Assembly: GCA_003598025.1 (NCBI GenBank)
Contig: QZKH01000003.1
Location: 234,048 to 298,047, forward strand
Length of the DNA stretch: 64,000 nt
Direction: 5' to 3'
Origin: Candidatus Omnitrophota bacterium
GTDB lineage: Bacteria; Omnitrophota; Gorgyraeia; Gygaellales; Profunditerraquicolaceae
Shown here: one piece after another, positions 14,953-44,656 of the stretch
Position numbering within the stretch: position 1 is the first letter of the stretch
Layout of the letters: each line of letters starts with the position of its first letter
Position numbers and translations under genes: made by a program
The notes under the pieces: generated by a model
The model's input: only the letters and a program-made list of their open reading frames with translations
Told to the model about the DNA's origin: nothing
Databases searched by the model: none

Positions 14953-16440
14953 CTAATTATTAATCGCTTCCACTAACGCCCTTGCTTTATTCAATGACTC
15001 ATTGTACTCTTTCTGAGGTAAAGAATCGGCGACTATACCGGCTCCAGCCTGGATATAAGCGTATCCATCCTTTAAAACTATAGTCCTTATTGTTATGCAG
15101 GTGTCCATATTCCCGGAAAAAGAAAAATACCCGATACAACCAGCATACGGCCCGCGCCTTACATTTTCAAGCTCATCAATTATCTGCATTGCCCTGACCT
15201 TAGGGCTTCCCGAAACGGTACCAGCCGGAAAACATGCCTTGAGAGCATCAAAACTTGACTTGCCCCTCTTAAGGTATCCGCTTACTTCCGAAACAATATG
15301 CATCACGTGAGAGTATCTTTCAATAGTCATAAATTCTGAGACTTTTACCTTGCCAGCCTGGCAAACCCTGCCTAAATCATTCCTGCCTAAATCCACAAGC
15401 ATTATATGCTCTGAACGCTCTTTAGCGTCATTTAAAAGTTCGGACTCCATTTTTTTATCCTGAGATTCATCCCTGCCCCGCGGCCTGGTACCGGCGATAG
15501 GCCTGGTCTGAGCAAAGCCATCCTCGCAACGAACCAGCATTTCCGGAGAAGAGCCTATCAGGCTGAACTTATCCATTTTTAGGTAAAACATATACGCGGA
15601 TGGGTTAATACTACGCAGTTTCCTGTAAATGTCAAAAGAATTTTTGTTAATTTTTATCTTCAATCTTTGCGAGAGGACAACTTGAATAATATCGCCTTTA
15701 TGTATATATTCTTTGGCTTTCTTGATAATATTCATGAACCCGTCTTTAGTAAAATTAGATCTTAATGTGATTTTATACGGCTTACGCTCCAGGGGACCAG
15801 AAACAGGCATGATTTTCTTAAATTTCATCTCTAAGTGATTGATCTCTTCAACAGCTTGAGAATACAGTTTTTTAACATAATTATTATTTTTGGCAGAACT
15901 TATTCGGGGTAAATAACAAATAGATATGATCTTGATTTTGTGCTTAAGATGGTCAAAGACCAGCAAGCTTTTGGTAAGCATAAACACCGAATCCGGCAGG
16001 TTAAGGTCATCTTTGTTTTTATCGGGAATGTCTTCAATAAATCTGACGGTATCATAGGAAAGGTATCCTATAAAACCTCCGTAAAACCTCGGCAGTCCGT
16101 TGACTTCAACCGGGTGGAAGTCACGCATAATACCTTCAAGCTCTTCAAGCGACCCCTTCGAGGTAACATAAGACTTGATCTTACCCATTGACGGCTTAAT
16201 GATTTTTATTTCTTTATCCCTATTAGAAAAAATCATATGGGGTTTTGTCCCCAGGAATGAAAACCTGGCTATCTTCTCCTGGCCTTCTACCGATTCAAGG
16301 AGGAATGAATATTTATCCTCTTGTATCCTTAGAAATGCTGAAACAGGAGTATCTAAATCAGCGTTTATCTCCTTAAACACAGGAATAACATTGCCCTTCT
16401 TAGCATATTTTAGAAATTGTTTATAATCAGGATAGATCAT
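14953..16440 (-). CDS. chorismate-utilising enzyme, anthranilate/aminodeoxychorismate synthase component I (TrpE/PabB family)
   Basis: 495 aa with chorismate-binding domain motifs (SPEMLVRCEDG..., PIAGTRPRG, GAVGYFS-like GCIGYFSFSG). No trp genes are adjacent, so TrpE versus PabB cannot be resolved. Confidence 0.8.
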   Translation of the reverse strand: MIYPDYKQFLKYAKKGNVIPVFKEINADLDTPVSAFLRIQEDKYSFLLESVEGQEKIARFSFLGTKPHMIFSNRDKEIKIIKPSMGKIKSYVTSKGSLEELEGIMRDFHPVEVNGLPRFYGGFIGYLSYDTVRFIEDIPDKNKDDLNLPDSVFMLTKSLLVFDHLKHKIKIISICYLPRISSAKNNNYVKKLYSQAVEEINHLEMKFKKIMPVSGPLERKPYKITLRSNFTKDGFMNIIKKAKEYIHKGDIIQVVLSQRLKIKINKNSFDIYRKLRSINPSAYMFYLKMDKFSLIGSSPEMLVRCEDGFAQTRPIAGTRPRGRDESQDKKMESELLNDAKERSEHIMLVDLGRNDLGRVCQAGKVKVSEFMTIERYSHVMHIVSEVSGYLKRGKSSFDALKACFPAGTVSGSPKVRAMQIIDELENVRRGPYAGCIGYFSFSGNMDTCITIRTIVLKDGYAYIQAGAGIVADSLPQKEYNESLNKARALVEAINN

Positions 16441-16458
16441 CTTTTAAATTATTTTATT

Positions 16459-16552
16459 CGTTCGAGTCCATAAAACCGCACATTTCAGGGTGCGGATGAA
16501 GTTTGAGCGTTCAGTATTTCGCTCCAAAAAATTTCGGGTTAAAGCCCGAGCA
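16459..16552 (-). repeat. about 100 nt intergenic repeat element, copy 2 (inverted relative to copies at 24447 and 62499); hairpin + T-tract acts as a terminator-like structure after hisI
   Basis: The reverse complement aligns with 24447-24546 and 62499-62597 (gggctttaacccgaa...ttggagcgaaatactga.cg...ccgcaccctgaaatgtgcggttttatgg). The hisI stop codon and last 5 codons (KLLGL*) lie within the element. Confidence 0.75.
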
Positions 16553-16886
16553 GCTTAATTTTTCTAAAGAAACAGCTTCTTTTGCCGGTATGGCAGGCAA
16601 CACCTACCTGTTTTACCTTGATCAATAAGGTATCCATATCGCAATCATAATAAATACTCTTAACAAACTGAAAATGGCCTGAAGTCATGCCTTTTACCCA
16701 ATACTCTTTCCTGGAACGCGACCAAAAACAAGTCTTTTTAAGCTTCAGGGTGCGTTTAATAGACTCTTTATTCATATAAGCAAGCATAAGCACGGCATTA
16801 TCCTTATAATCCTGGATAATGACAGGAATAAGGCCGTTACTATCAAATTTCAAATCTTTAATACTGACTTTTTTCTCTTTTTTCAT
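16539..16886 (-). CDS. hisI: phosphoribosyl-AMP cyclohydrolase (monofunctional)
   Basis: 115 aa of HisI fold with Cys ligands (...[26 protein letters not shown]). No fused HisE domain. Confidence 0.88.
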
Positions 16887-24426: not shown

Positions 24427-24546
24427 TGGTATAATTATGAAGCTCCCCGAGCTAAAGCCCGAGGTTTCTTGGAGCGAAATACTGAGCGTACACACTCCCT
24501 CCGCACCTTTCAAGGTGCGGTTTTTGTGGCCGCGAACTTATAAAAT
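24427..24546 (+). ncRNA. candidate small RNA / repeat element copy 1: extended -10 promoter (TGgTATAAT at 24427-24435) followed by about 100 nt conserved element ending in hairpin 24501-24520 + TTTTT
   Basis: Plus strand, antisense to the recA-recX spacer. Homologous copies lie at 62499-62597 (+) and 16459-16552 (-). Hairpin ccgcaccttt-caa-ggtgcgg is followed by ttttt. Confidence 0.5.
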
Positions 24547-24595
24547 GTCGCCGGCGAATTTAACCAATGCGGCTTGCGCGCATTAAACGCTTAAA

Positions 24596-25618
24596 CTAAA
24601 TCTTCTTCCTTAACTCTTTTTCGATTGTTTCCTGCAGTTTAGGATTTTCCTTAAGCAGTTTTATAGCTGCTTCTCTTCCCTGCCCGATTTTCTCTTCGCC
24701 ATAAGACAACCAGGCGCCGCTTTTGTTTACTATTTCGGCGCTGATCGCAGCATCAAGTATGCTGGCAGTCTTTGATATGCCCTCATTATGCATTATCTCA
24801 AACTCTGCTTCCCTGAAAGGCGCAGCGACCTTGTTTTTTACTACTCTAGCCCTTACCCGGTTGCCTATTACCAGGTCATCTGATTTCAAAGTGGCGATTT
24901 TTCTTAAATCTATCCTCACAGATGAATAAAACTTAAGCGCCCTGCCTCCGGGTGTGGTTTCAGGAGAACCGAACATAACCCCGATCTTCTCCCTTATCTG
25001 GTTTATAAAAACCATACATGTTCGTGATTTACTGATAGCGCCAGTCAATTTTCTTAAGGCCTGGGACATCAATCTTGCCTGTAAGCCTACATGCGAATCA
25101 CCCATTTCCCCCTCAATTTCAGCACGGGGAGTCAGCGCGGCGACAGAATCAATGATAACTAAATCAACGGCATTTGAACGCACAAGCGTCTCTGCAATTT
25201 CTAGAGCCTGCTCACCGGTATCCGGCTGAGAGATTAATAGATCATCCAGGTTAACACCAACGATTTTGGCGTAATTTGAATCAAAAGCATGCTCTGCATC
25301 AATAAATGCAGCTACTCCTCCTAACGATTGGATCTCTTTAATAAGCGACAACGTAAGAGTTGTCTTTCCGGAAGCTTCAGGGCCATATATCTCAATAACC
25401 CTTCCCCTAGGAAAACCGCCGACACCAAGGGCCAAATCAAGGGTTAATGCGCCTGTAGGGATAACTTCCACATTAACCTTTACATCTGAACCCAGTTTCA
25501 TTATGGAACCTTTACCGAATTGTTTTTCGATCTGCGATAAAGCCAATTCAAGTGCTTTTTGGCGGTTAGATAGGTCTTTTGCGGGATCCTTTTGCAAAAC
25601 TTTCTTATCTACAGTCAT
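24596..25618 (-). CDS. recA: recombinase RecA
   Basis: 340 aa with Walker [10 protein letters not shown] and a conserved L1/L2 region. Confidence 0.97.
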
Positions 25619-25677
25619 AATTCCTCCGATAGTTTATGGTTTGAGAGATAATTATATCTTACTTAATTTAGGCTGTC

Positions 25678-25848
25678 AATCAGTTAGTTCATAGTTCATG
25701 GTTCATAGTTGACAGATAACCTGGAATTCATCGGCCATAAAAACCATATAACTATGAACTGTGAACCATAAACCCTCCTTATCTATATGACGGATTAAAA
25801 ACCTAAATCTAACACATTAGTTCATTGTTCATGGTTGATGGTTGATGG
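25678..25848. repeat. arrays of tandem heptamers (TAGTTCA/TGGTTCA/TTGTTCA/TAGTTGA and complement TGAACTA) arranged as imperfect inverted arrays
   Basis: 25685-25712 holds 4 units on the + strand, 25750-25773 holds 3 units in inverted orientation, and 25818-25848 holds 4+ units. The recA-GGDEF divergent intergenic region is 458 bp. Confidence 0.85.
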
Positions 25849-26004
25849 ATAATATTATAAGCATATGGATTACATGGGTATCGCGTATATCGTGTTGAGT
25901 ATTGAGTATTATTCCTTCTTGCAGGCGAGTTAATAATTCACTGTTTAAGGCTCAAAGTTACTATTCTAATTATGTAAAACTTTGAACTATGAACTGGGTA
26001 CTTC

Positions 26005-26070
26005 TGTGTCCTTGTGACATTGTGTCTTTGTGGCTAGCTACTTTCTATGTTTCTATGAACTATGAACTAA
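26005..26070 (+). repeat. composite repeat (TGTGAC.TTGTGTC...TGTGTCTTTG..CTA.TACTTTCTATGTTTCTATG + 2 TGAACTA units), family 2; second copy at 42312-42406
   Basis: Aligns with 42312-42406 and partly with 31556-31594. Confidence 0.75.
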
Positions 26071-26112
26071 CTGACATTGACACTTATCTTAAAATATGCT
26101 ACATTTTCTTTC

Positions 26113-27303
26113 ATGGATGAATCAATACAAAAGGTTAAGCAGGATCTTGAAAAGACAAAAGCAGAGCTGGCCATTCTCTATGAAGTCTCAAATGCAATGC
26201 GCACAACTCTTAAGCTTGATGAGATCCTTTATATAATCCTTACCGGTGTTACAGCCCATACCGGGCTAGGCTTTAACAGGGCGATTCTTTTTCTTGTTAA
26301 TGAAAATGAATCAATCCTTGAAGGAAAAATGGGCATAGGCCCTGAAACCGGAGAAGAGGCAAACCGTATATGGAACCAGATAGAACATGAAAACATGGGC
26401 CTGGATGAGCTTATAAGTGTCTATAAATCTTCGTCATTCAATGTCCTTGAATCCGGGTTCAACCAACAGGTCAGGCGTTTCAAGATACCGCTGGCAGAGA
26501 AGAATGATGACCTCTTTGCCCTGGGAGTGATGGAGGGGATGCCGCTCCTGCTTACCAAAGATGCAATAAAAGGTTACACAAATTACCCGGTGATACGCGA
26601 GTTAAAAAGCGAAGAACTCGCCATTGTCCCGCTAAAAGCTAAAGACAAGATAAACGGCCTCATCATAGCTGATAATTTTATTACAAAAAAAACCATAACT
26701 AAAGATGATATGCGTATGCTTGTCATGCTGGCTAACCAGGCAGGTCTTGCAATTGAAAACTCACAGCTTTTTGAGAAAACAATGCTCAGGGCCCACTCAG
26801 ATTCACTGACCGAATTATGGAACCACGGTTATTTTCAATATCTGCTCCAGACAGAAATTGACAGAGCCAGAGCGACAAACAATAAACTAAGCCTGATAAT
26901 GCTCGATATAGACGATTTTAAGATTTATAACGACCTTTCGGGACATCAGTCAGGGGACAGGATACTGAAAGAACTGGCTAGATTATTAAAGAACCAGTCA
27001 AGAAAAATGGACCATGTATGCCGTTATGGAGGAGAAGAATTCACCATTATACTACCCCACACCGAAGGCAACGAAGCTTATATGATAGCTGAACGCTTAA
27101 GAGAAGATGTAGAAAAATATCCTTTTTGGAAAGAAGAACTGCTTCCGAATAAAAAAGTTACGATAAGTATGGGGATTGCCACTTTCCCAATGGACGGGAA
27201 GAGCTCATCAGAGCTGATATCGGCATCCGATATAGCCCTATATCAAGCAAAAGCAAAAGGAAAAAACAACACCTTCCTCTACAAAACCCCAACCGGTATT
27301 TAA
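26113..27303 (+). CDS. GAF domain-containing diguanylate cyclase (GGDEF)
   Basis: N-terminal GAF-like region, then GGDEF domain with RYGGEEFTIILP and an upstream inhibitory-site-like RxxD. The ORF-track start at 26077 is a TTG inside the heptamer array; the first ATG is at 26113. The only plus-strand gene in the window. Confidence 0.85.
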   Translation: MDESIQKVKQDLEKTKAELAILYEVSNAMRTTLKLDEILYIILTGVTAHTGLGFNRAILFLVNENESILEGKMGIGPETGEEANRIWNQIEHENMGLDELISVYKSSSFNVLESGFNQQVRRFKIPLAEKNDDLFALGVMEGMPLLLTKDAIKGYTNYPVIRELKSEELAIVPLKAKDKINGLIIADNFITKKTITKDDMRMLVMLANQAGLAIENSQLFEKTMLRAHSDSLTELWNHGYFQYLLQTEIDRARATNNKLSLIMLDIDDFKIYNDLSGHQSGDRILKELARLLKNQSRKMDHVCRYGGEEFTIILPHTEGNEAYMIAERLREDVEKYPFWKEELLPNKKVTISMGIATFPMDGKSSSELISASDIALYQAKAKGKNNTFLYKTPTGI

Positions 27304-31066: not shown

Positions 31067-31519
31067 TTTATCTCCTAACTTATTGTTGTGTATATGATAA
31101 TAAGAATTTTTGATTTTGTCAAGCATAATTTGCAGTTTCTTACATCCTTATGCATAACAGAATGAAAGGTTGCAATATTATCCATACTTTATCATTACAT
31201 AACCTGTTGTAAATAAATAAGTTAGGGTGAAAATTGATTGGTAATCGATAACTTCTTTGTCTGCGCAGGGTTACGAATTTTTTTTCAAAATTTATCCGGT
31301 GCCGGATAATCATGAATTTGCAAATGATGCTAATAGGCTTTATTATCTCTGCCAAATAATCTGGTTCGTTGGACGGATCCATGACTGTTTTTATATTCAA
31401 TAAAATTAAAGTAGTAATCTTAGCGAAGGCATAAATCTATGGGTAGGTGTATTAGAAGGACTTTCCTGTTAACCGATTAACTCAATTAAAAATTTTTGTA
31501 TTGGTATTGCAGGGGATAT

Positions 31520-31594
31520 CAGTTCATGGTTGATAGTTCATTGTTCATAGACGTGGCTAATTTCTATGTACTACCAACCATGAACTATGAATTA
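31520..31594. repeat. heptamer arrays forming a 15-bp-arm inverted repeat (gttcatggttgatag ... ctaccaaccatgaac) directly 3' of etfA
   Basis: 31520-31547 holds 4 units in CAGTTCA/TGGTTGA/TAGTTCA/TTGTTCA form, and 31581-31594 holds units in TGAACTA/TGAATTA form. The etfA stop codon (31592-31594) lies in the last unit. Confidence 0.8.
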
Positions 31595-32815
31595 TTTCTT
31601 TAATATCTCTTTGAATTTTCTCGTTAGGGCAGGTACTACCTGGAAGACATCTCCGACGATACCATATGTTGCTACTTTAAATATAGGCGCGTCCGGGTCC
31701 TTATTGATGGCTATAATAATCTTTGAAGATTGCATCCCGACGAGGTGCTGGATCTGGCCTGATATGCCGCAGGCAAAGTAAATCTTAGGCGAGACAGTGC
31801 GCCCGGTTTGCCCCACCTGGTGAGAATAAGGCATCCATCCCGCATCAACTGCCGCCCGGGAAGCACCGACAGCTGCGCCGATAACATGGGCAAATTCTTC
31901 AAGCATTTTAAAATTCTCGGGTGCACCCATACCTCTGCCTCCTGAAACAATAATATCAGCTTCGGCTAAATTGACCAACGATTCTACTTCATCGACAATA
32001 TCCAGAAGTTTAGTCCTAGAACTAAACAGCGCTGGATCGACTTTCTCAATTATGATTTTGCCTTTCCTTGCTTTATTCGGAGCCATAGGTTGCATGACTT
32101 TATGCCTGACGGTAGCCATCTGCGGCCTGAAATTAGGAGAAATTATAGTTGCCATTATATTACCGCCAAATGCTGGTCTTGTTTGCAGCAGTATTTTTTT
32201 GTCTGGATCAATATCTAAACCTGTACAATCTGCAGTAAGCCCTGCCTTTATCCTTATCGCAACCCTGGATATAAGCGAACGGCCGATTGAAGTAGCGCCG
32301 CAGAGCACTATTTCTGGTTTATATTTTTGTATTAAATAGACTAAGATGTTGGTATAAGGCTCATCCTGGAAATTAGCTATTTCTGGCGCCTGTACCAGAT
32401 AAATGTTATCCGCACCATGCCAAATTAATTCGTCCAATTGATCATCTAAGCCGTTGCCGATTAATACTGCGCTTACATCCGTCCCCAACTTTTTTGACAA
32501 CTCATGTGCCTTACCTAAAAGTTCGTAAGATACCGACTGGATCTTTCCTTTCTTTTGTTCAATAAATACCCAAACTCCCTTGTAGTCCTTGATATCCGGC
32601 AGCTTGCAAACTGACTGGTCTTTATCAATCATTATCGCTTTGAATTTACAAGCTGATACACAGGCCCCGCACAAAGTACACTTATCCTCGTCAATTACAG
32701 CGATTTTTTTGCCTTTAGCATCTAATCTGTCCATCATGCGGATGGCATCAAAGGGGCATGTCTTAACGCATAATGTGCAACCGGTGCATTTTTCTACAAT
32801 AATCTTTATAGGCAT
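31592..32815 (-). CDS. etfA: electron transfer flavoprotein alpha subunit with N-terminal 2x[4Fe-4S] ferredoxin domain (FixB/CarE-like)
   Basis: 407 aa. Two CxxCxxCxxxCP motifs at the N-terminus (CTGCTLCVKTCP; CTLCGACVSACK), then EtfA FAD-binding domain motifs. Confidence 0.88.
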   Translation of the reverse strand: MPIKIIVEKCTGCTLCVKTCPFDAIRMMDRLDAKGKKIAVIDEDKCTLCGACVSACKFKAIMIDKDQSVCKLPDIKDYKGVWVFIEQKKGKIQSVSYELLGKAHELSKKLGTDVSAVLIGNGLDDQLDELIWHGADNIYLVQAPEIANFQDEPYTNILVYLIQKYKPEIVLCGATSIGRSLISRVAIRIKAGLTADCTGLDIDPDKKILLQTRPAFGGNIMATIISPNFRPQMATVRHKVMQPMAPNKARKGKIIIEKVDPALFSSRTKLLDIVDEVESLVNLAEADIIVSGGRGMGAPENFKMLEEFAHVIGAAVGASRAAVDAGWMPYSHQVGQTGRTVSPKIYFACGISGQIQHLVGMQSSKIIIAINKDPDAPIFKVATYGIVGDVFQVVPALTRKFKEILKK

Positions 32816-33597: not shown

Positions 33598-33611
33598 ACT
33601 TATTTTCCCTA

Positions 33612-33640
33612 TTACTGTGAACAATGAACTGTGAACTATT
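33612..33640. repeat. heptamer array (TGAACAA TGAACTG TGAACTA) between acyl-CoA dehydrogenase stop and etfB start
   Basis: 3 units. The acd stop codon TAG (33636-33638, minus strand) lies inside the last unit. Confidence 0.75.
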
Positions 33641-42186: not shown

Positions 42187-42311
42187 GAATTTCCTCCTAT
42201 TTAAATGCTTTAATATATATCAATTTAGTTGGTTTGTCAAAGGTTTTCCCTTTACTGTCAGGATGGTTGGTTTATAATTCGTATAGGTATAGAGTATTGC
42301 GTTATTGCAAT

Positions 42312-42406
42312 ATGTGACTTTGTGTCGTGTGTCTTTGCGACTGAATACTTTATCTATTTCTATGAACTATCAACTATGAACCATAAACTATGAACTATGA
42401 ACTAAA
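42312..42406 (+). repeat. family-2 composite repeat plus 6-unit TGAACTA heptamer array
   Basis: tgtgactttgtgtcgtgtgtctttgcgactgaatactttatctatttctatg, followed by TGAACTA TCAACTA TGAACCA TAAACTA TGAACTA TGAACTA (42363-42404). The stop codon of the upstream minus-strand gene (42395-42397) lies inside the array. Confidence 0.8.
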
Positions 42407-44656
42407 ATCCACTTTCTGTCCTATTGGTAAACTTGCGATGAGAAGGCTTGAAAGCTTAAAGAATAGCAAAAATACCAGGCTGTTTATAAGTCCGATTACA
42501 GGAAAAAAGAATATCCCGGCCAAAACCCCCGAAAGACAGCTTCCCAACAGATCTGCGGCATAAAGCAATCCGGCATTGGCAGCTTTGAAGCTGACATTAT
42601 TATTAATCAGCGAATTGGCCAAAACAAATTGAAAACCGACACAAAAACCGGGCAAAGCAAATAAGAATACAAAAAGTATATAATTATTAACAAAGATGAT
42701 ATTTTTATCAAATAAAACTATCAAAGATGAGATTATTGAAATAATCAGCAATTCACCAGATATAAACAGTTTACTAAGCAGTTTTCTTTCCGTTTTAAAT
42801 CTGCCGGCAACCAGGCTTCCCACAGCAGCTCCGGACATAAATATGCTGATAAGAAAACCTATTCTCTGGTAAAGGTAACCGAAATATACCTGAAAAGCAA
42901 ACGAAAGCATAAGCATAACCATCATCCCGAAAAACCCAGTAACAGCAACTGGATAAAAAATCTGGATATCGTTTTTCAGGTAATTTTTTAAACGCAAAAC
43001 CAATATAAAAACAGTGGCAATGATAACAAGAATCAACAACGCCGTTAAATTTATACTCTTTACCTTTTCAAAGATATATTTCATTCCGGATGAATATTTA
43101 TTACTCCATAAACGCATGCTTTCATAAACTGCGACCGGCCTGAGGTCAGTGTTAACTTCTTTTGTTGCATTCTTCAACTGAGCACTAAACCATTCCTGCC
43201 GAGCGGCATCCAATCTGTAATTAAGATAACCTGCATTCAGAAAATCAGTAGTAATCCCCATTTGTTTCATTCTGTTCTCAATTACTTTCGGGTTGAAATT
43301 ATATTTGATAAAGCGCGAATCTGTGCCTATGTATAAATTATAATCTCCGGGAATAACGGAAGTATACGCAAAAACATCTTTGAGGCCGTTAAATATGCAG
43401 GCATTCATATCTTTAAGCTCATTGCCCATATAAGTACTTGACCCTAAAAGGCTAAATACAATTAATCCGCCCCTATTTAATTTCGTTTTTACTAAAGCAA
43501 AAAACTCTTTAGTCAGAAGCCTGTTTGCCGACAAATCAACCGGGCCGCTGACACCAAGAAAAATAATATCAAATTTATCAACTGCCCGTAACAAAAAGAG
43601 CCTTCCATCAATATTACTCAGCCATAATCTTTTATCTGAGAGTTCAAGCAGGCTAAGTTCATCAGGATGCTTCTTGACCATTTCAATCAGTAAAGGATCA
43701 AGCTCGGCATAATCGACTCTATCTACAGGGTATTTAAATATTTCCGATATCACTCCCCCTATCCCGCCGCCGATCACAAGTATCCGCTTAGGGTTATCAC
43801 TTAATAACAAGGGAAAATTTACAAAATCTTCAATTAAATTAGTATCGGGATGCGGCAATATTACTGCCGGAAGGCCATTATAATAAAATACCGTCTGCTT
43901 ATTATCCTTGGTTACTGCGACATTGCCGTATACAGAATTTCTGTTTTCAACCGCCCCCTCCCTGCCAAATCTTATTTTAAGCGAAGACTTTTCCAAATCA
44001 GCCGGCCGGTTAAAAATTATTGTAAATATAAATACTGCGAATATGGAAATAAGTAGAAATTTAGCCCTGCCTGCAGAAAAACTTTTAAGAAAAACAAAGC
44101 CGACGATCGCGCTAGCTAAGGCAACCAAGTAAGCAATCTGAAATGATGAATAATGGGTTACCAGGGCATAAGTAAAAACAAAACCTCCGATTATAGTGCC
44201 CAGCGTTTCTAAGGCATAAATATTTGCGACCGGACTTGCCTTCTTGTCATTTTTTGAAGAGAATAGTGAACAGGCACAGCTGAATAAAGCGCCATGGCTG
44301 GAAGCTATAAGCAGATTCGCCATGAACGATAACAATAGCACTTGCCCTATTCCCAGCGCCTCATAGGGTTTAAGATCAAAAAGAAATTTAAATGTCCTGG
44401 AAAAATATAATGCTGCAGGCAGGCTGGCTGAAAAAATAAGGTTAAGCACAACAAAATATAACCTGGATTTATCCTTGTTACGCCTAAGCAACAGAGAAAA
44501 AATGTAGGCGCCTAAAGATTCAAGGAAAATCCAGCTGGATAATATGGCCCCGATAACAAGCTCATTACCATATGCGCTAAAAGATATCTCCCTCAATAGA
44601 AGGACCTGCGCGATTATGCCGCTTGCTCCCACTAGAACCAGAAAGAATATATTCAT
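42395..44656 (-). CDS. membrane-embedded spermidine-synthase-like (aminopropyltransferase-fold) fusion protein
   Basis: 753 aa. About 7 N-terminal TMs, then a central SpeE-like Rossmann domain (ILVIGGGIGGVISEI...DRVDYAELDP...DIIFLGVSGP), then about 7 C-terminal TMs. Inserted between gap and pgk. Confidence 0.65.
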   Translation of the reverse strand: MNIFFLVLVGASGIIAQVLLLREISFSAYGNELVIGAILSSWIFLESLGAYIFSLLLRRNKDKSRLYFVVLNLIFSASLPAALYFSRTFKFLFDLKPYEALGIGQVLLLSFMANLLIASSHGALFSCACSLFSSKNDKKASPVANIYALETLGTIIGGFVFTYALVTHYSSFQIAYLVALASAIVGFVFLKSFSAGRAKFLLISIFAVFIFTIIFNRPADLEKSSLKIRFGREGAVENRNSVYGNVAVTKDNKQTVFYYNGLPAVILPHPDTNLIEDFVNFPLLLSDNPKRILVIGGGIGGVISEIFKYPVDRVDYAELDPLLIEMVKKHPDELSLLELSDKRLWLSNIDGRLFLLRAVDKFDIIFLGVSGPVDLSANRLLTKEFFALVKTKLNRGGLIVFSLLGSSTYMGNELKDMNACIFNGLKDVFAYTSVIPGDYNLYIGTDSRFIKYNFNPKVIENRMKQMGITTDFLNAGYLNYRLDAARQEWFSAQLKNATKEVNTDLRPVAVYESMRLWSNKYSSGMKYIFEKVKSINLTALLILVIIATVFILVLRLKNYLKNDIQIFYPVAVTGFFGMMVMLMLSFAFQVYFGYLYQRIGFLISIFMSGAAVGSLVAGRFKTERKLLSKLFISGELLIISIISSLIVLFDKNIIFVNNYILFVFLFALPGFCVGFQFVLANSLINNNVSFKAANAGLLYAADLLGSCLSGVLAGIFFFPVIGLINSLVFLLFFKLSSLLIASLPIGQKVDFSS

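Follow-up and report, generated by a model that had tools for sequence, protein, structure and literature searches.

Tandem runs of a 7-bp unit, T[A/G/T]GTT[C/G]A, occupy the spacer between recA and a GAF-GGDEF gene in contig QZKH01000003.1 of a Candidatus Omnitrophota bacterium; the window analysed here is a 64,000-nucleotide stretch of that contig. On balance, we consider it probable that these runs are arms and arm fragments of small palindromic repeat elements, one family of which has spread through intergenic DNA of this genome. An element would consist of 3–5 tandem 7-bp units, a spacer and an inverted run, in the order GTTSA-run ... TSAAC-run, and in the full-length form, met elsewhere, a gene for a ~120-aa 23S-rRNA-intervening-sequence or four-helix-bundle protein (PF05635, TIGR02436) would lie between the arms. 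Copies in the window would be gene-less miniatures (A1/A2, A3/A4 and 31520-31591) and solo arms (A5, 33614-33638 and 42360-42404; Table 1), a status best read like that of miniature inverted-repeat transposable elements (MITEs) and repetitive extragenic palindromes (REPs) relative to their parent elements. The anatomy, polarity, folding and recent insertion of the arrays are shown by the analysis. The unit T[AGT]GTT[CG]A and the phylum Omnitrophota are new, the kind of repeat is already known, and its function is unsolved.

Arrays of this unit occurred far above chance. The pattern GTTSA-N2-GTTSA (GTTSANNGTTSA) matched 17 times in the window compared with 0.24 ± 0.51 in shuffled sequence, the arrays were called by Tandem Repeats Finder (TRF), and in a scan of the window for periods 4–12 the sole outstanding period was 7. 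Strong period-7 regions all belonged to the T[AGT]GTT[CG]A family, save for one TTGAGTA tract at 25874-25913. Within the unit, G3, T4, T5 and A7 were almost invariant and positions 1, 2 and 6 varied. An earlier, sequence-only reading of this region had listed five runs in the recA/GGDEF spacer, and the window sequence bore out the position of all five. It had not noticed the decayed period-7 tracts and the 8-bp-period tract, the three further array loci, the polar inverted pairing, the occurrence in many phyla or the link to PF05635 cassettes. Four array loci were found in the 64 kb (recA/GGDEF, 31520-31591, 33614-33638 and 42360-42404), confined to intergenic regions, and coding overlap was limited to a first unit lying on a stop codon. 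No arrays were present in a 9.5-kb extension of the contig, a tightly packed operon. The window covers housekeeping genes (rpoB, those for ribosomal proteins, his genes, alaS, recX, recA, the GAF-GGDEF gene, SMC, acd-etfBA and pgk), with nearly all genes on the minus strand, and the genes neighbouring the four loci have no common function.

Comparison with relatives indicated that the arrays arrived recently. The closest RecA other than that of the source itself was 86% identical. A relative with an 83% identical RecA (L243) has the same gene order, acd-etfB-etfA-PilZ-HTH-SMC-GGDEF/recA, and conserves the equivalent −35 and −10 boxes of both divergent genes; its recA/GGDEF spacer measures 174 bp versus 494 bp in the window. 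Between the two −35 boxes, a spacer of ~70 bp has been replaced by one of ~400 bp, so ~330 bp were added. The sequence-only reading had given the spacer in the window as 458 bp; alignment with the ortholog and a promoter scan identified the TTG at 26077 as part of a −35 box and placed the GGDEF start at ATG 26113, which makes it 494 bp. No heptamer runs were seen at any of the three comparable sites in L243, and T[AGT]GTT[CG]A arrays were not found in 13.5 kb of syntenic L243 sequence, nor in L241-L245. At acd/etfB the two genes overlap in L243 (TAATG) with no insert, whereas the window has a 39-nt insert with GG[CG][TA]AAATA[GA] on both sides, a suggestive but imperfect 10-bp duplication. Because the arrays are missing from syntenic L243, those in the window are lineage-specific insertions or expansions. 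The sequence-only reading had allowed for arrays missing at orthologous sites together with an origin in assembly artefacts: the orthologous spacer does lack them, and the artefact half is disfavoured (see below). Where the window has a heptamer hairpin at the etfA 3′ region, L243 (4496-4720) has unrelated REP-like palindromes, GGGACACCC/GGGTGTCCC; the kind of palindromic repeat at this operon end differs from lineage to lineage.

The inverted pairing of runs was strongly polar. Two scans, one of viral contigs with a pattern of four GTTSA units and the other of a single genome from each species with four GTTSAT[AGT] units, returned at least 120 stretches each. Among the matches listed were cyanobacteria, Bacteroidota, Desulfobacterota, Methylomirabilales, Acidobacteriota and others, with GC contents of 0.24–0.69, and the same design recurred in Mucilaginibacter, Methylomirabilales, cyanobacteria and further taxa; ~80% of these arrays lay outside open reading frames (ORFs), and many had an inverted partner 10–130 nt away. 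Among arrays with a partner, it was downstream for 24 and upstream for 1 in genome loci, and downstream for 58 and upstream for 1 in viral loci, which pools to 82 downstream and 2 upstream of 84 partnered arrays. This polarity defines the element as 5′-(NNGTTSA)n - spacer - (TSAACNN)n-3′, on either strand. All three inverted pairs in the window (A1/A2, A3/A4 and 31520/31570) have the polarity GTTSA-run ... TSAAC-run. No orientation bias with respect to flanking genes was detected among 143 arrays in other genomes (25 versus 28 in co-directional contexts).

Strong folds were computed for the paired runs, in line with the earlier suggestion that neighbouring opposite runs form hairpins. The segment 25675-25785, with A1 and A2, folded with z −3.3 on the plus and −4.1 on the minus strand (spacer ~37–39 nt; inverted match 83% over 24 nt), and the etfA hairpin (31510-31600, minus strand) gave an RNA fold of −27.7 kcal/mol with z −6.3. 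Single runs were unstructured (z about 0 to +1). At the Rfam 15 gathering score the window yielded two tRNAs only; no meaningful match was found in 25550-26150, and none in 15 related loci.

The connection to PF05635 genes was seen in loci of several origins. An Omnitrophota locus reached via RecA only (L241) contains a 23S_rRNA_IVP gene between hisB and hisH, with (TAGTAAC)n upstream and (GTTACTA)n downstream. A hidden Markov model (HMM) search of all fetched loci found five PF05635 ORFs, and family identity as PF05635/TIGR02436 was confirmed by Pfam and NCBIfam. Four of the five had inverted 7–8-nt arrays (Richelia with CAGTTGA, a Bacteroidia locus with GGCAAATG, L260 and L241); the fifth encodes the Avd protein of a diversity-generating retroelement (DGR), lies between variable and template repeats and has no arrays. 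L260 (5330-5860) uses exactly the units of the window: its left arm, CAGTTCA TAGTTCA TTGTTCA TAGTTCA, leads into a Shine-Dalgarno sequence and the ATG of the PF05635 ORF, its right arm reads TGAACTA TGAACAA TGAACTA TGAACTA, and the arms are complementary at 27/28 positions. The ORF of L260 is interrupted by a nested gene-less TAGTTCA hairpin.

To avoid selection bias, loci were also chosen by the protein alone, namely five metagenome or genome contexts (between epimerase genes, hisB/hisH, ilvB/ilvN twice, and cca/aminotransferase in a candidate phyla radiation (CPR) bacterium) and eight complete cyanobacterial plasmids. Inverted arrays abutted the start and stop codons in 5/5 of the former, all with heptamer arms, and in 7/8 of the latter, the remaining plasmid (Pseudanabaena) having direct arrays on both sides. 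The 7- or 8-nt periodicity score of the flanks was 14–21 out of 21 in 15/16 non-DGR PF05635 loci. Across 46 control genes the maximum was 13, and one DGR Avd locus had no periodic flanks. The flanking array pairs were inverted in 14 of the 15 positive loci. Cassette units varied widely (GTAACTR, AGTCAGG, GGAGATAA, GGGTGTA, GGGAAAA and GGGAGTA). In L338, L241 and L331 the stop codon of the upstream gene lies inside the first array units, as it does at window gene 42395-44656, and arms abutting an upstream stop or downstream start were also seen in L338, L241, L331 and L357. A rule that the 5′ arm either has stops in three frames or is purine-rich was rejected, as it fails for several arm families; the AGTCAGG and GGCAAATG arms have no stop codon in any frame.

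Two of the plasmid cassettes sit between cas genes, at cmr2/cmr3 in Picosynechococcus (L375) and at cas6/cas4 in Pseudanabaena (L376), a placement already noted for PF05635 genes (PMC3936711). L376 is the exception in the sample, with direct (AAAGCYA)n arrays on both sides and ~14 units upstream. A viral DGR locus (L099, 11880-12640) served as a negative control; its Avd-like PF05635/PF22296 gene has no heptamer flanks, and of the two copies of a ~110-nt sequence that enclose it, one is variable-repeat-like and the other A-rich and template-repeat-like.

Table 1. Arrays, companion sequences and promoters of the window (window coordinates), and copies of a related phage hairpin (coordinates within each viral locus).
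Feature	Position	Strand	Description
recA promoter (context)	25651..25679	-	-35 TTGACA, 17-nt spacer, -10 TATAAT; promoter scan 12/12 matches
Array A1, 4 units	25685..25712	+	TAGTTCA TAGTTCA TGGTTCA TAGTTGA; 5′ arm of hairpin pair A1/A2
Array A2, 3 units + partial	25750..25773	-	inverted, reverse complement GTTTATGGTTCACAGTTCATAGTT; 3′ arm
Array A3	25818..25848	+	TAGTTCA TTGTTCA TGGTTGA TGGTTGA TGG
Degenerate array	25893..25913	+	GTGTTGA GTATTGA GTATTAT; TRF period 7 at 25895-25910, period-7 scan
Decayed period-7 tract	25926..25961	+	GAGTTAA TAATTCA CTGTTTA AGGCTCA AAGTTAC
Array A4	25978..25996 (two full units 25983-25996)	-	inverted, CAGTTCA TAGTTCA AAGTT
Companion module adjoining A5	26003..26055	-	leader-like TAGAAAcATAGAAAGTA, then 8-bp-period tract CACAAAGA CACAATGT CACAAGGA CACAG
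Array A5	26053..26069 (two full units 26056-26069)	-	inverted, TAGTTCA TAGTTCA TAG
GGDEF-gene promoter (context)	26077..26105	+	TTGACA, 17-nt spacer, TACATT with extended TG; start ATG 26113
Gene-less hairpin element, directly after etfA stop (31592-31594)	31520..31591	.	CAGTTCA TGGTTGA TAGTTCA TTGTTCA, 22-nt spacer, inverted run ...CCAACCATGAACTATGAA
Solo array + new ribosome-binding region, between acd stop and etfB ATG	33600..33638 (array 33614-33638)	-	TAGTTCA CAGTTCA TTGTTCA CAG
6–7-unit array from TAG stop of gene 42395-44656, then companion module	42305..42404 (array 42360-42404)	-	TRF score 69
Phage hairpin copies	L042 3265-3353; L018 1554-1642; L056 11920-12001; L064 1533-1621		

Within the focal spacer, A1 starts 5 bp upstream of the recA −35 box and A5 ends 7 bp before that of the GGDEF gene, and 25680-25699 and 26055-26074 form a perfect 20-nt inverted repeat. 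A3 with its flanks (TTAGTTCAT...GATAA) is a near-copy of the A1 region (86% over 36 nt), and the decayed tract is a 61% member of the same direct-repeat family with a partial inverted match to A4. The 8-bp-period tract spans 26003-26035 of the companion module, a ~55-nt sequence of which alignment revealed one copy beside A5 and a second beside the 42360 array (42305-42362). A pattern derived from these two copies, TAGAAANANANAAAGTAN6CRCAAAGACACA, matches only 26021-26055 and 42328-42362. Elsewhere, the acd stop lies 1 nt before its array, which sits inside the operon, and the array at the 3′ end of the spermidine-synthase-like gene 42395-44656, together with its companion module, precedes the pgk −35 box (42240) by ~60 nt. 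Scanning of the intergenic regions at the array sites found no canonical terminator after etfA or after gene 42395-44656.

Three further observations concern the same DNA. Inside A2, at 25757-25789 (minus strand), a perfect Shine-Dalgarno sequence precedes a 5-codon mini-ORF, AAGGAGGGTTTATGGTTCACAGTTCATAG (MVHSS*), which is probably there by chance. In the recA 5′ leader (25627-25643, minus strand), the GGAGG ribosome-binding site is immediately preceded by a pair of degenerate units (CAAACCA TAAACTA), recalling the TAACTGA runs of Beggiatoaceae placed shortly upstream of start codons. A second dispersed repeat of ~95 nt, 80% identical between copies, occurs in opposite orientations at 16441-16538 (minus) and 24440-24560 (plus). 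It contains a terminator-like hairpin, CCGCACC...GGTGCGG-T5, and one copy lies in the recA-recX spacer, antisense to both genes; the copy scanned (16400-16600) had no Rfam match.

If the arrays are arms of such elements, the recent insertions are probably selfish or near-neutral. Copies would have spread, and replication slippage would have resized the arrays. The arms may derive from the gene, or the gene may be a passenger that they carry. Where an element is transcribed, as at the etfA 3′ end and the acd/etfB junction, its paired stem of 18–28 bp would act like the stem of a ribosomal intervening sequence (IVS), as a putative RNase III target or a 3′-end barrier at an operon end that has no canonical terminator. 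The terminator-less ends of etfA and gene 42395-44656 fit either role and do not prove it. The elements in the recA/GGDEF spacer lie upstream of both promoters and are probably untranscribed; their position is the one hint at a possible regulatory effect on the two genes.

Several points weigh against this account. The genome sequence read comprises the 64-kb window and the 9.5-kb extension. Neither HMM search nor tblastn found a PF05635 ORF or remnant in the window, including the 395-bp block bounded by the 20-nt inverted repeat, so the window copies can only be called gene-less relatives, and L260 is the only cassette found with their exact unit family. PF05635 genes are also scarce compared with the arrays: loci totalling 2.4 Mb, mostly chosen for their arrays, contained 4. 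The hairpins could therefore carry the gene as a passenger instead of deriving from it. The window copies have no conserved spacer and show no clear target-site duplication. A1 and A5 abut the two −35 boxes in the same relative orientation and share a perfect 20-nt inverted repeat, a placement that could reflect a promoter-related function. Finally, cleavage of the stems by RNase III is proposed purely by likeness to ribosomal IVSs.

The runs might instead be plain simple-sequence repeats (SSRs) grown by slippage in tolerant intergenic DNA, with no element identity and no partner gene, and we give this only a small chance. They are tandem, imperfect, variable in length (2–7 units) and strictly intergenic, decayed tracts occur in the focal region, and among long SSRs heptanucleotides are reported to be the most frequent in the majority of genomes (Mrazek 2007, as quoted in PMC4679880). 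Slippage alone would leave unexplained one unit family at four loci without any other heptamer family, the 82:2 polarity of partners, arms that copy each other's variant units, the non-repeat module common to two arrays and the near-universal flanking of PF05635 genes.

It is likewise unlikely that the runs are arrays of sites for a DNA-binding protein, be it a nucleoid protein, a global regulator or a ribbon-helix-helix protein of the omega/ParG type reading 7-bp heptads, which at this locus would modulate the divergent recA and GGDEF promoters. In favour of such arrays, unit positions 3–5 and 7 are almost invariant and positions 1, 2 and 6 vary, A1 and A5 end 5–7 bp upstream of both −35 boxes in the symmetrical arrangement described above, and direct and converging heptads are the binding sites of the omega repressor of pSM19035. 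In Geobacter metallireducens, paired tandem-repeat sites have been proposed to bind as yet unidentified global regulators (PMC2700814), and TTTTGAT heptads at V. cholerae ctxAB recruit regulators (10.1101/2021.05.14.444153). Against such a function, other copies are found away from promoters, within an operon and at the 3′ ends of genes, the neighbouring genes lack a common function, the relative keeps both promoters without arrays, and the 143 arrays in other genomes are unbiased in orientation relative to genes. No candidate binder is encoded beside the arrays, where small ORFs were not screened for ribbon-helix-helix folds.

More specific operators were rejected. A LexA/SOS or recA-specific operator does not fit arrays that are dispersed (etfA, acd/etfB, pgk) and absent upstream of recA in L243 and L241, and here the sequence-only reading had rightly judged that this is not a known SOS box. 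Its suggestion of an iteron-like or recA/GGDEF-specific protein-binding array found no support. Plasmid iterons are 17–22-bp repeats with a rep gene and an AT-rich region; the unit here is 7 bp, the neighbours are recA, GAF-GGDEF and SMC genes, and neither rep nor an origin context is present. The same arrays lie at unrelated loci whose neighbours share no function, which argues against an SOS box, an iteron and a gene-specific operator alike, and a relative in which both promoters are retained has no runs at the syntenic site. Its other suggestion, a lineage-specific intergenic punctuation element, agrees with our results in that arrays often begin on or beside stop codons; as an overall interpretation, then, the non-SOS, hairpin and lineage-specific punctuation parts stand and the iteron/operator part lacks support.

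Punctuation at the RNA level, in which transcribed runs would either be recognised by an RNA-binding protein or signal multi-frame stop and re-initiation, is improbable. The (UAG-N4)n spacing resembles HutP sites; HutP-type proteins are not known in Omnitrophota. Three arrays start on or ≤3 nt from a stop codon, both solo arrays flanked by same-strand genes read TAGTTCA in the sense direction (n = 2), and single runs are unstructured. Translational regulation has been proposed for TAACTGA runs shortly upstream of starts (MacGregor 2015, PMC4679880). The five focal arrays, however, lie between divergent promoters and are probably untranscribed, and the argument from orientation has n = 2 with no bias elsewhere. 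Most arrays also lack stops in all frames: the earlier statement that each array carries stops in all three frames on both strands is true of array 42360-42404 only, and in each of the five focal arrays a given strand has stops in one to three of its frames.

A conventional MITE, derived from an insertion sequence with a DDE transposase and with the heptamer runs as terminal inverted repeats, is very improbable. It would account for the terminal inverted runs, for the perfect 20-nt inverted repeat at the ends of the 395-bp block, for the multiple copies and for their absence in the relative; yet no direct target duplication flanks the block (25680/26074), interiors are not conserved among copies, solo arms are common and no transposase was found among the ten flanking genes scanned. 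That the arrays arose from faulty assembly of low-complexity DNA has next to no likelihood, even though the source is a metagenome-assembled genome and many PF05635 homologues lie on very short contigs, a sign that assemblies break near such repeats, since the runs are short (≤49 bp), imperfect and present at four loci, an independently retrieved contig record is identical over 12.6 kb, and the finished chromosomes and plasmids of isolates contain equivalent arrays.

The scans also brought up repeat families that we record separately. One phage hairpin family has (ATGTTGA/GTGTTGA)x4, a conserved 33-nt loop, TTGCCTCACGGACTCAAGGGCGCTAGCCTAAA, and inverted arms (Table 1); two of the loci (L056 and L064) come from IMGVR_UViG_3300045988_172751, so that one 52.9-kb phage contig holds at least two copies at different sites, and relatives in the databases were unannotated human-gut phage fragments only. 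Viral contigs of GC 0.57–0.62 (L058 1-2792, L068, L094 and L085) contain at least four (GTTCAAG-type)n hairpin elements within a few kb, some beside CCCCTTCGGGG terminator-like hairpins and with polypurine AAAGAGAGG in their loops; these had no match among annotated phages. In Mucilaginibacter sp. (L171 5852-6000) two tandem composites consist of a GTTCA/GTTGA run and a second heptamer family (TAGTCCA TAGACGA TGGTCGA TAGTCCA), and the flank TAGCCGGAA after the run is common to several Mucilaginibacter species. Seven freshwater-sediment metagenome contigs (L249, L272, L288, L299, L301, L306 and L323) have TAGTTCA runs with a conserved left flank, GCGCAAATGATCGCGCAGCGAGTTCATTGTTCG, followed by CACAGAG/CACGAAT-type short tandem tracts. 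These tracts resemble the 8-bp-period module of the window, so that several families of short repeats travel together. Seven metagenome matches with TAGTTCATAGTTCATAGAAA before a conserved TTCCGCT...TTGACCAGCGGATTACATAG were set aside because they look like ends of an unrelated, possibly eukaryotic, element, to judge by the one long example, which has no long ORFs.

A broader possibility, which we put forward tentatively, is that heptamer and octamer arrays in general are arms or miniatures of one superfamily of selfish IVS-like cassettes, whose PF05635 protein would recognise or mobilise its own arms. It would take in the short tandemly repeated repetitive (STRR) sequences, the Beggiatoa TAACTGA runs, the Geobacter "global regulator sites", many phage hairpins and the window arrays; PF05635, a relative of Avd, would act in trans, the cassettes would spread between phyla, possibly on phages, and RNase III would cut transcribed stems, splitting operon mRNAs as ribosomal IVSs split 23S rRNA. 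For the window itself, the recA upstream region carries inserted repeat elements and no new SOS-type operator, and the main value of these arrays is the cross-genome pattern reached from them. Short tandem intergenic heptamers have been reported since 1990 without explanation, and PF05635, noted in CPR rRNA insertions, is still described as functionally uncharacterised (10.1101/2024.02.27.582315). The flanking of PF05635 genes and the GTTSA polarity give both puzzles one common testable handle. We found no paper linking heptamer arrays with PF05635; such a link may exist beyond the literature searched.

Among known systems, the window arrays resemble the heptanucleotide long simple sequence repeats (LSSRs) and STRR sequences, which are short tandem 7-bp runs, intergenic, with one favoured unit per genome and sporadic across phyla. 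The cyanobacterial STRR sequences were reportedly described by Mazel in 1990. The window arrays likewise consist of tandem 7-nt units above chance, non-coding, dispersed and not conserved at orthologous sites. They differ in unit and phylum, both new (TAGTTCATAGTTCA was not found in the literature searched), and in their polar inverted pairs, which do not appear in the STRR and LSSR descriptions found. In Beggiatoaceae, cyanobacteria and Bacteroidetes, TAACTGA runs of 2–6 heptamers are nearly all intergenic and abut starts or stops (PMC4679880). Like the window arrays they interrupt ribosomal or housekeeping operons, they have the same three-phylum spread in the present genome scan, and their unit differs by one base from the GTAACTR arms that flank PF05635 in Omnitrophota loci. 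Unlike the window arrays, those in the BOGUAY genome are almost all solo, forward and directly before starts, with one inverted pair reported and no link made to PF05635. The Geobacter metallireducens sites (GTTGCTYN x4, TCTCCGTS[Y] x3 and MTYCTGA x5) are paired on opposite strands at variable distance (Aklujkar 2009, PMC2700814). They too are 3–5 tandem 7–9-nt units in tens of copies, lie between operon genes (for example proB/proA) and are species-specific, being absent from G. sulfurreducens; in contrast, their units are others, they were read as IHF/HU-type regulator sites without experimental test, and no link to PF05635 was reported.

The REP family, with its bacterial interspersed mosaic elements (BIMEs) and REP doublets (REPINs), shares with the window arrays the short, dispersed intergenic palindromes, inverted doublets at operon ends and lineage specificity, and can stabilise the 3′ ends of mRNAs. 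A REP arm consists of one imperfect palindrome headed by GT[AG]G and is moved by REP-associated tyrosine transposases (RAYTs), whereas the window arms are tandem heptamers without a GTAG head and the associated gene encodes a four-helix bundle with no known catalytic activity. The omega operators of pSM19035 are 7–10 contiguous heptads of the unit WATCACW that overlap a promoter in a partition and copy-control context, with the cognate gene adjacent. Common to both are contiguous 7-bp heptads, direct or converging at promoters, with converging preferred over diverging; in the window the arrays abut the −35 boxes without overlapping them, and most other copies lie off promoters. The 23S rRNA IVS, also known with S23p ORFs from Leptospira, likewise forms a stem from its two ends with the PF05635 ORF in the loop. 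In Coxiella the S23p ATG follows a Shine-Dalgarno sequence and three GACAGAT heptamers, the number of heptamers varies between strains, and the RNase III cut falls at the first repeat (PMC4990558). RNase III excises these ribosomal IVSs from within rRNA helix 45, whereas the window copies are intergenic with no PF05635/TIGR02436 ORF between their arms; what the window copies have in common with the IVS-like cassettes is inverted paired runs around a spacer, arms that abut stop codons and, at L260 only, the same unit family at a PF05635 gene.

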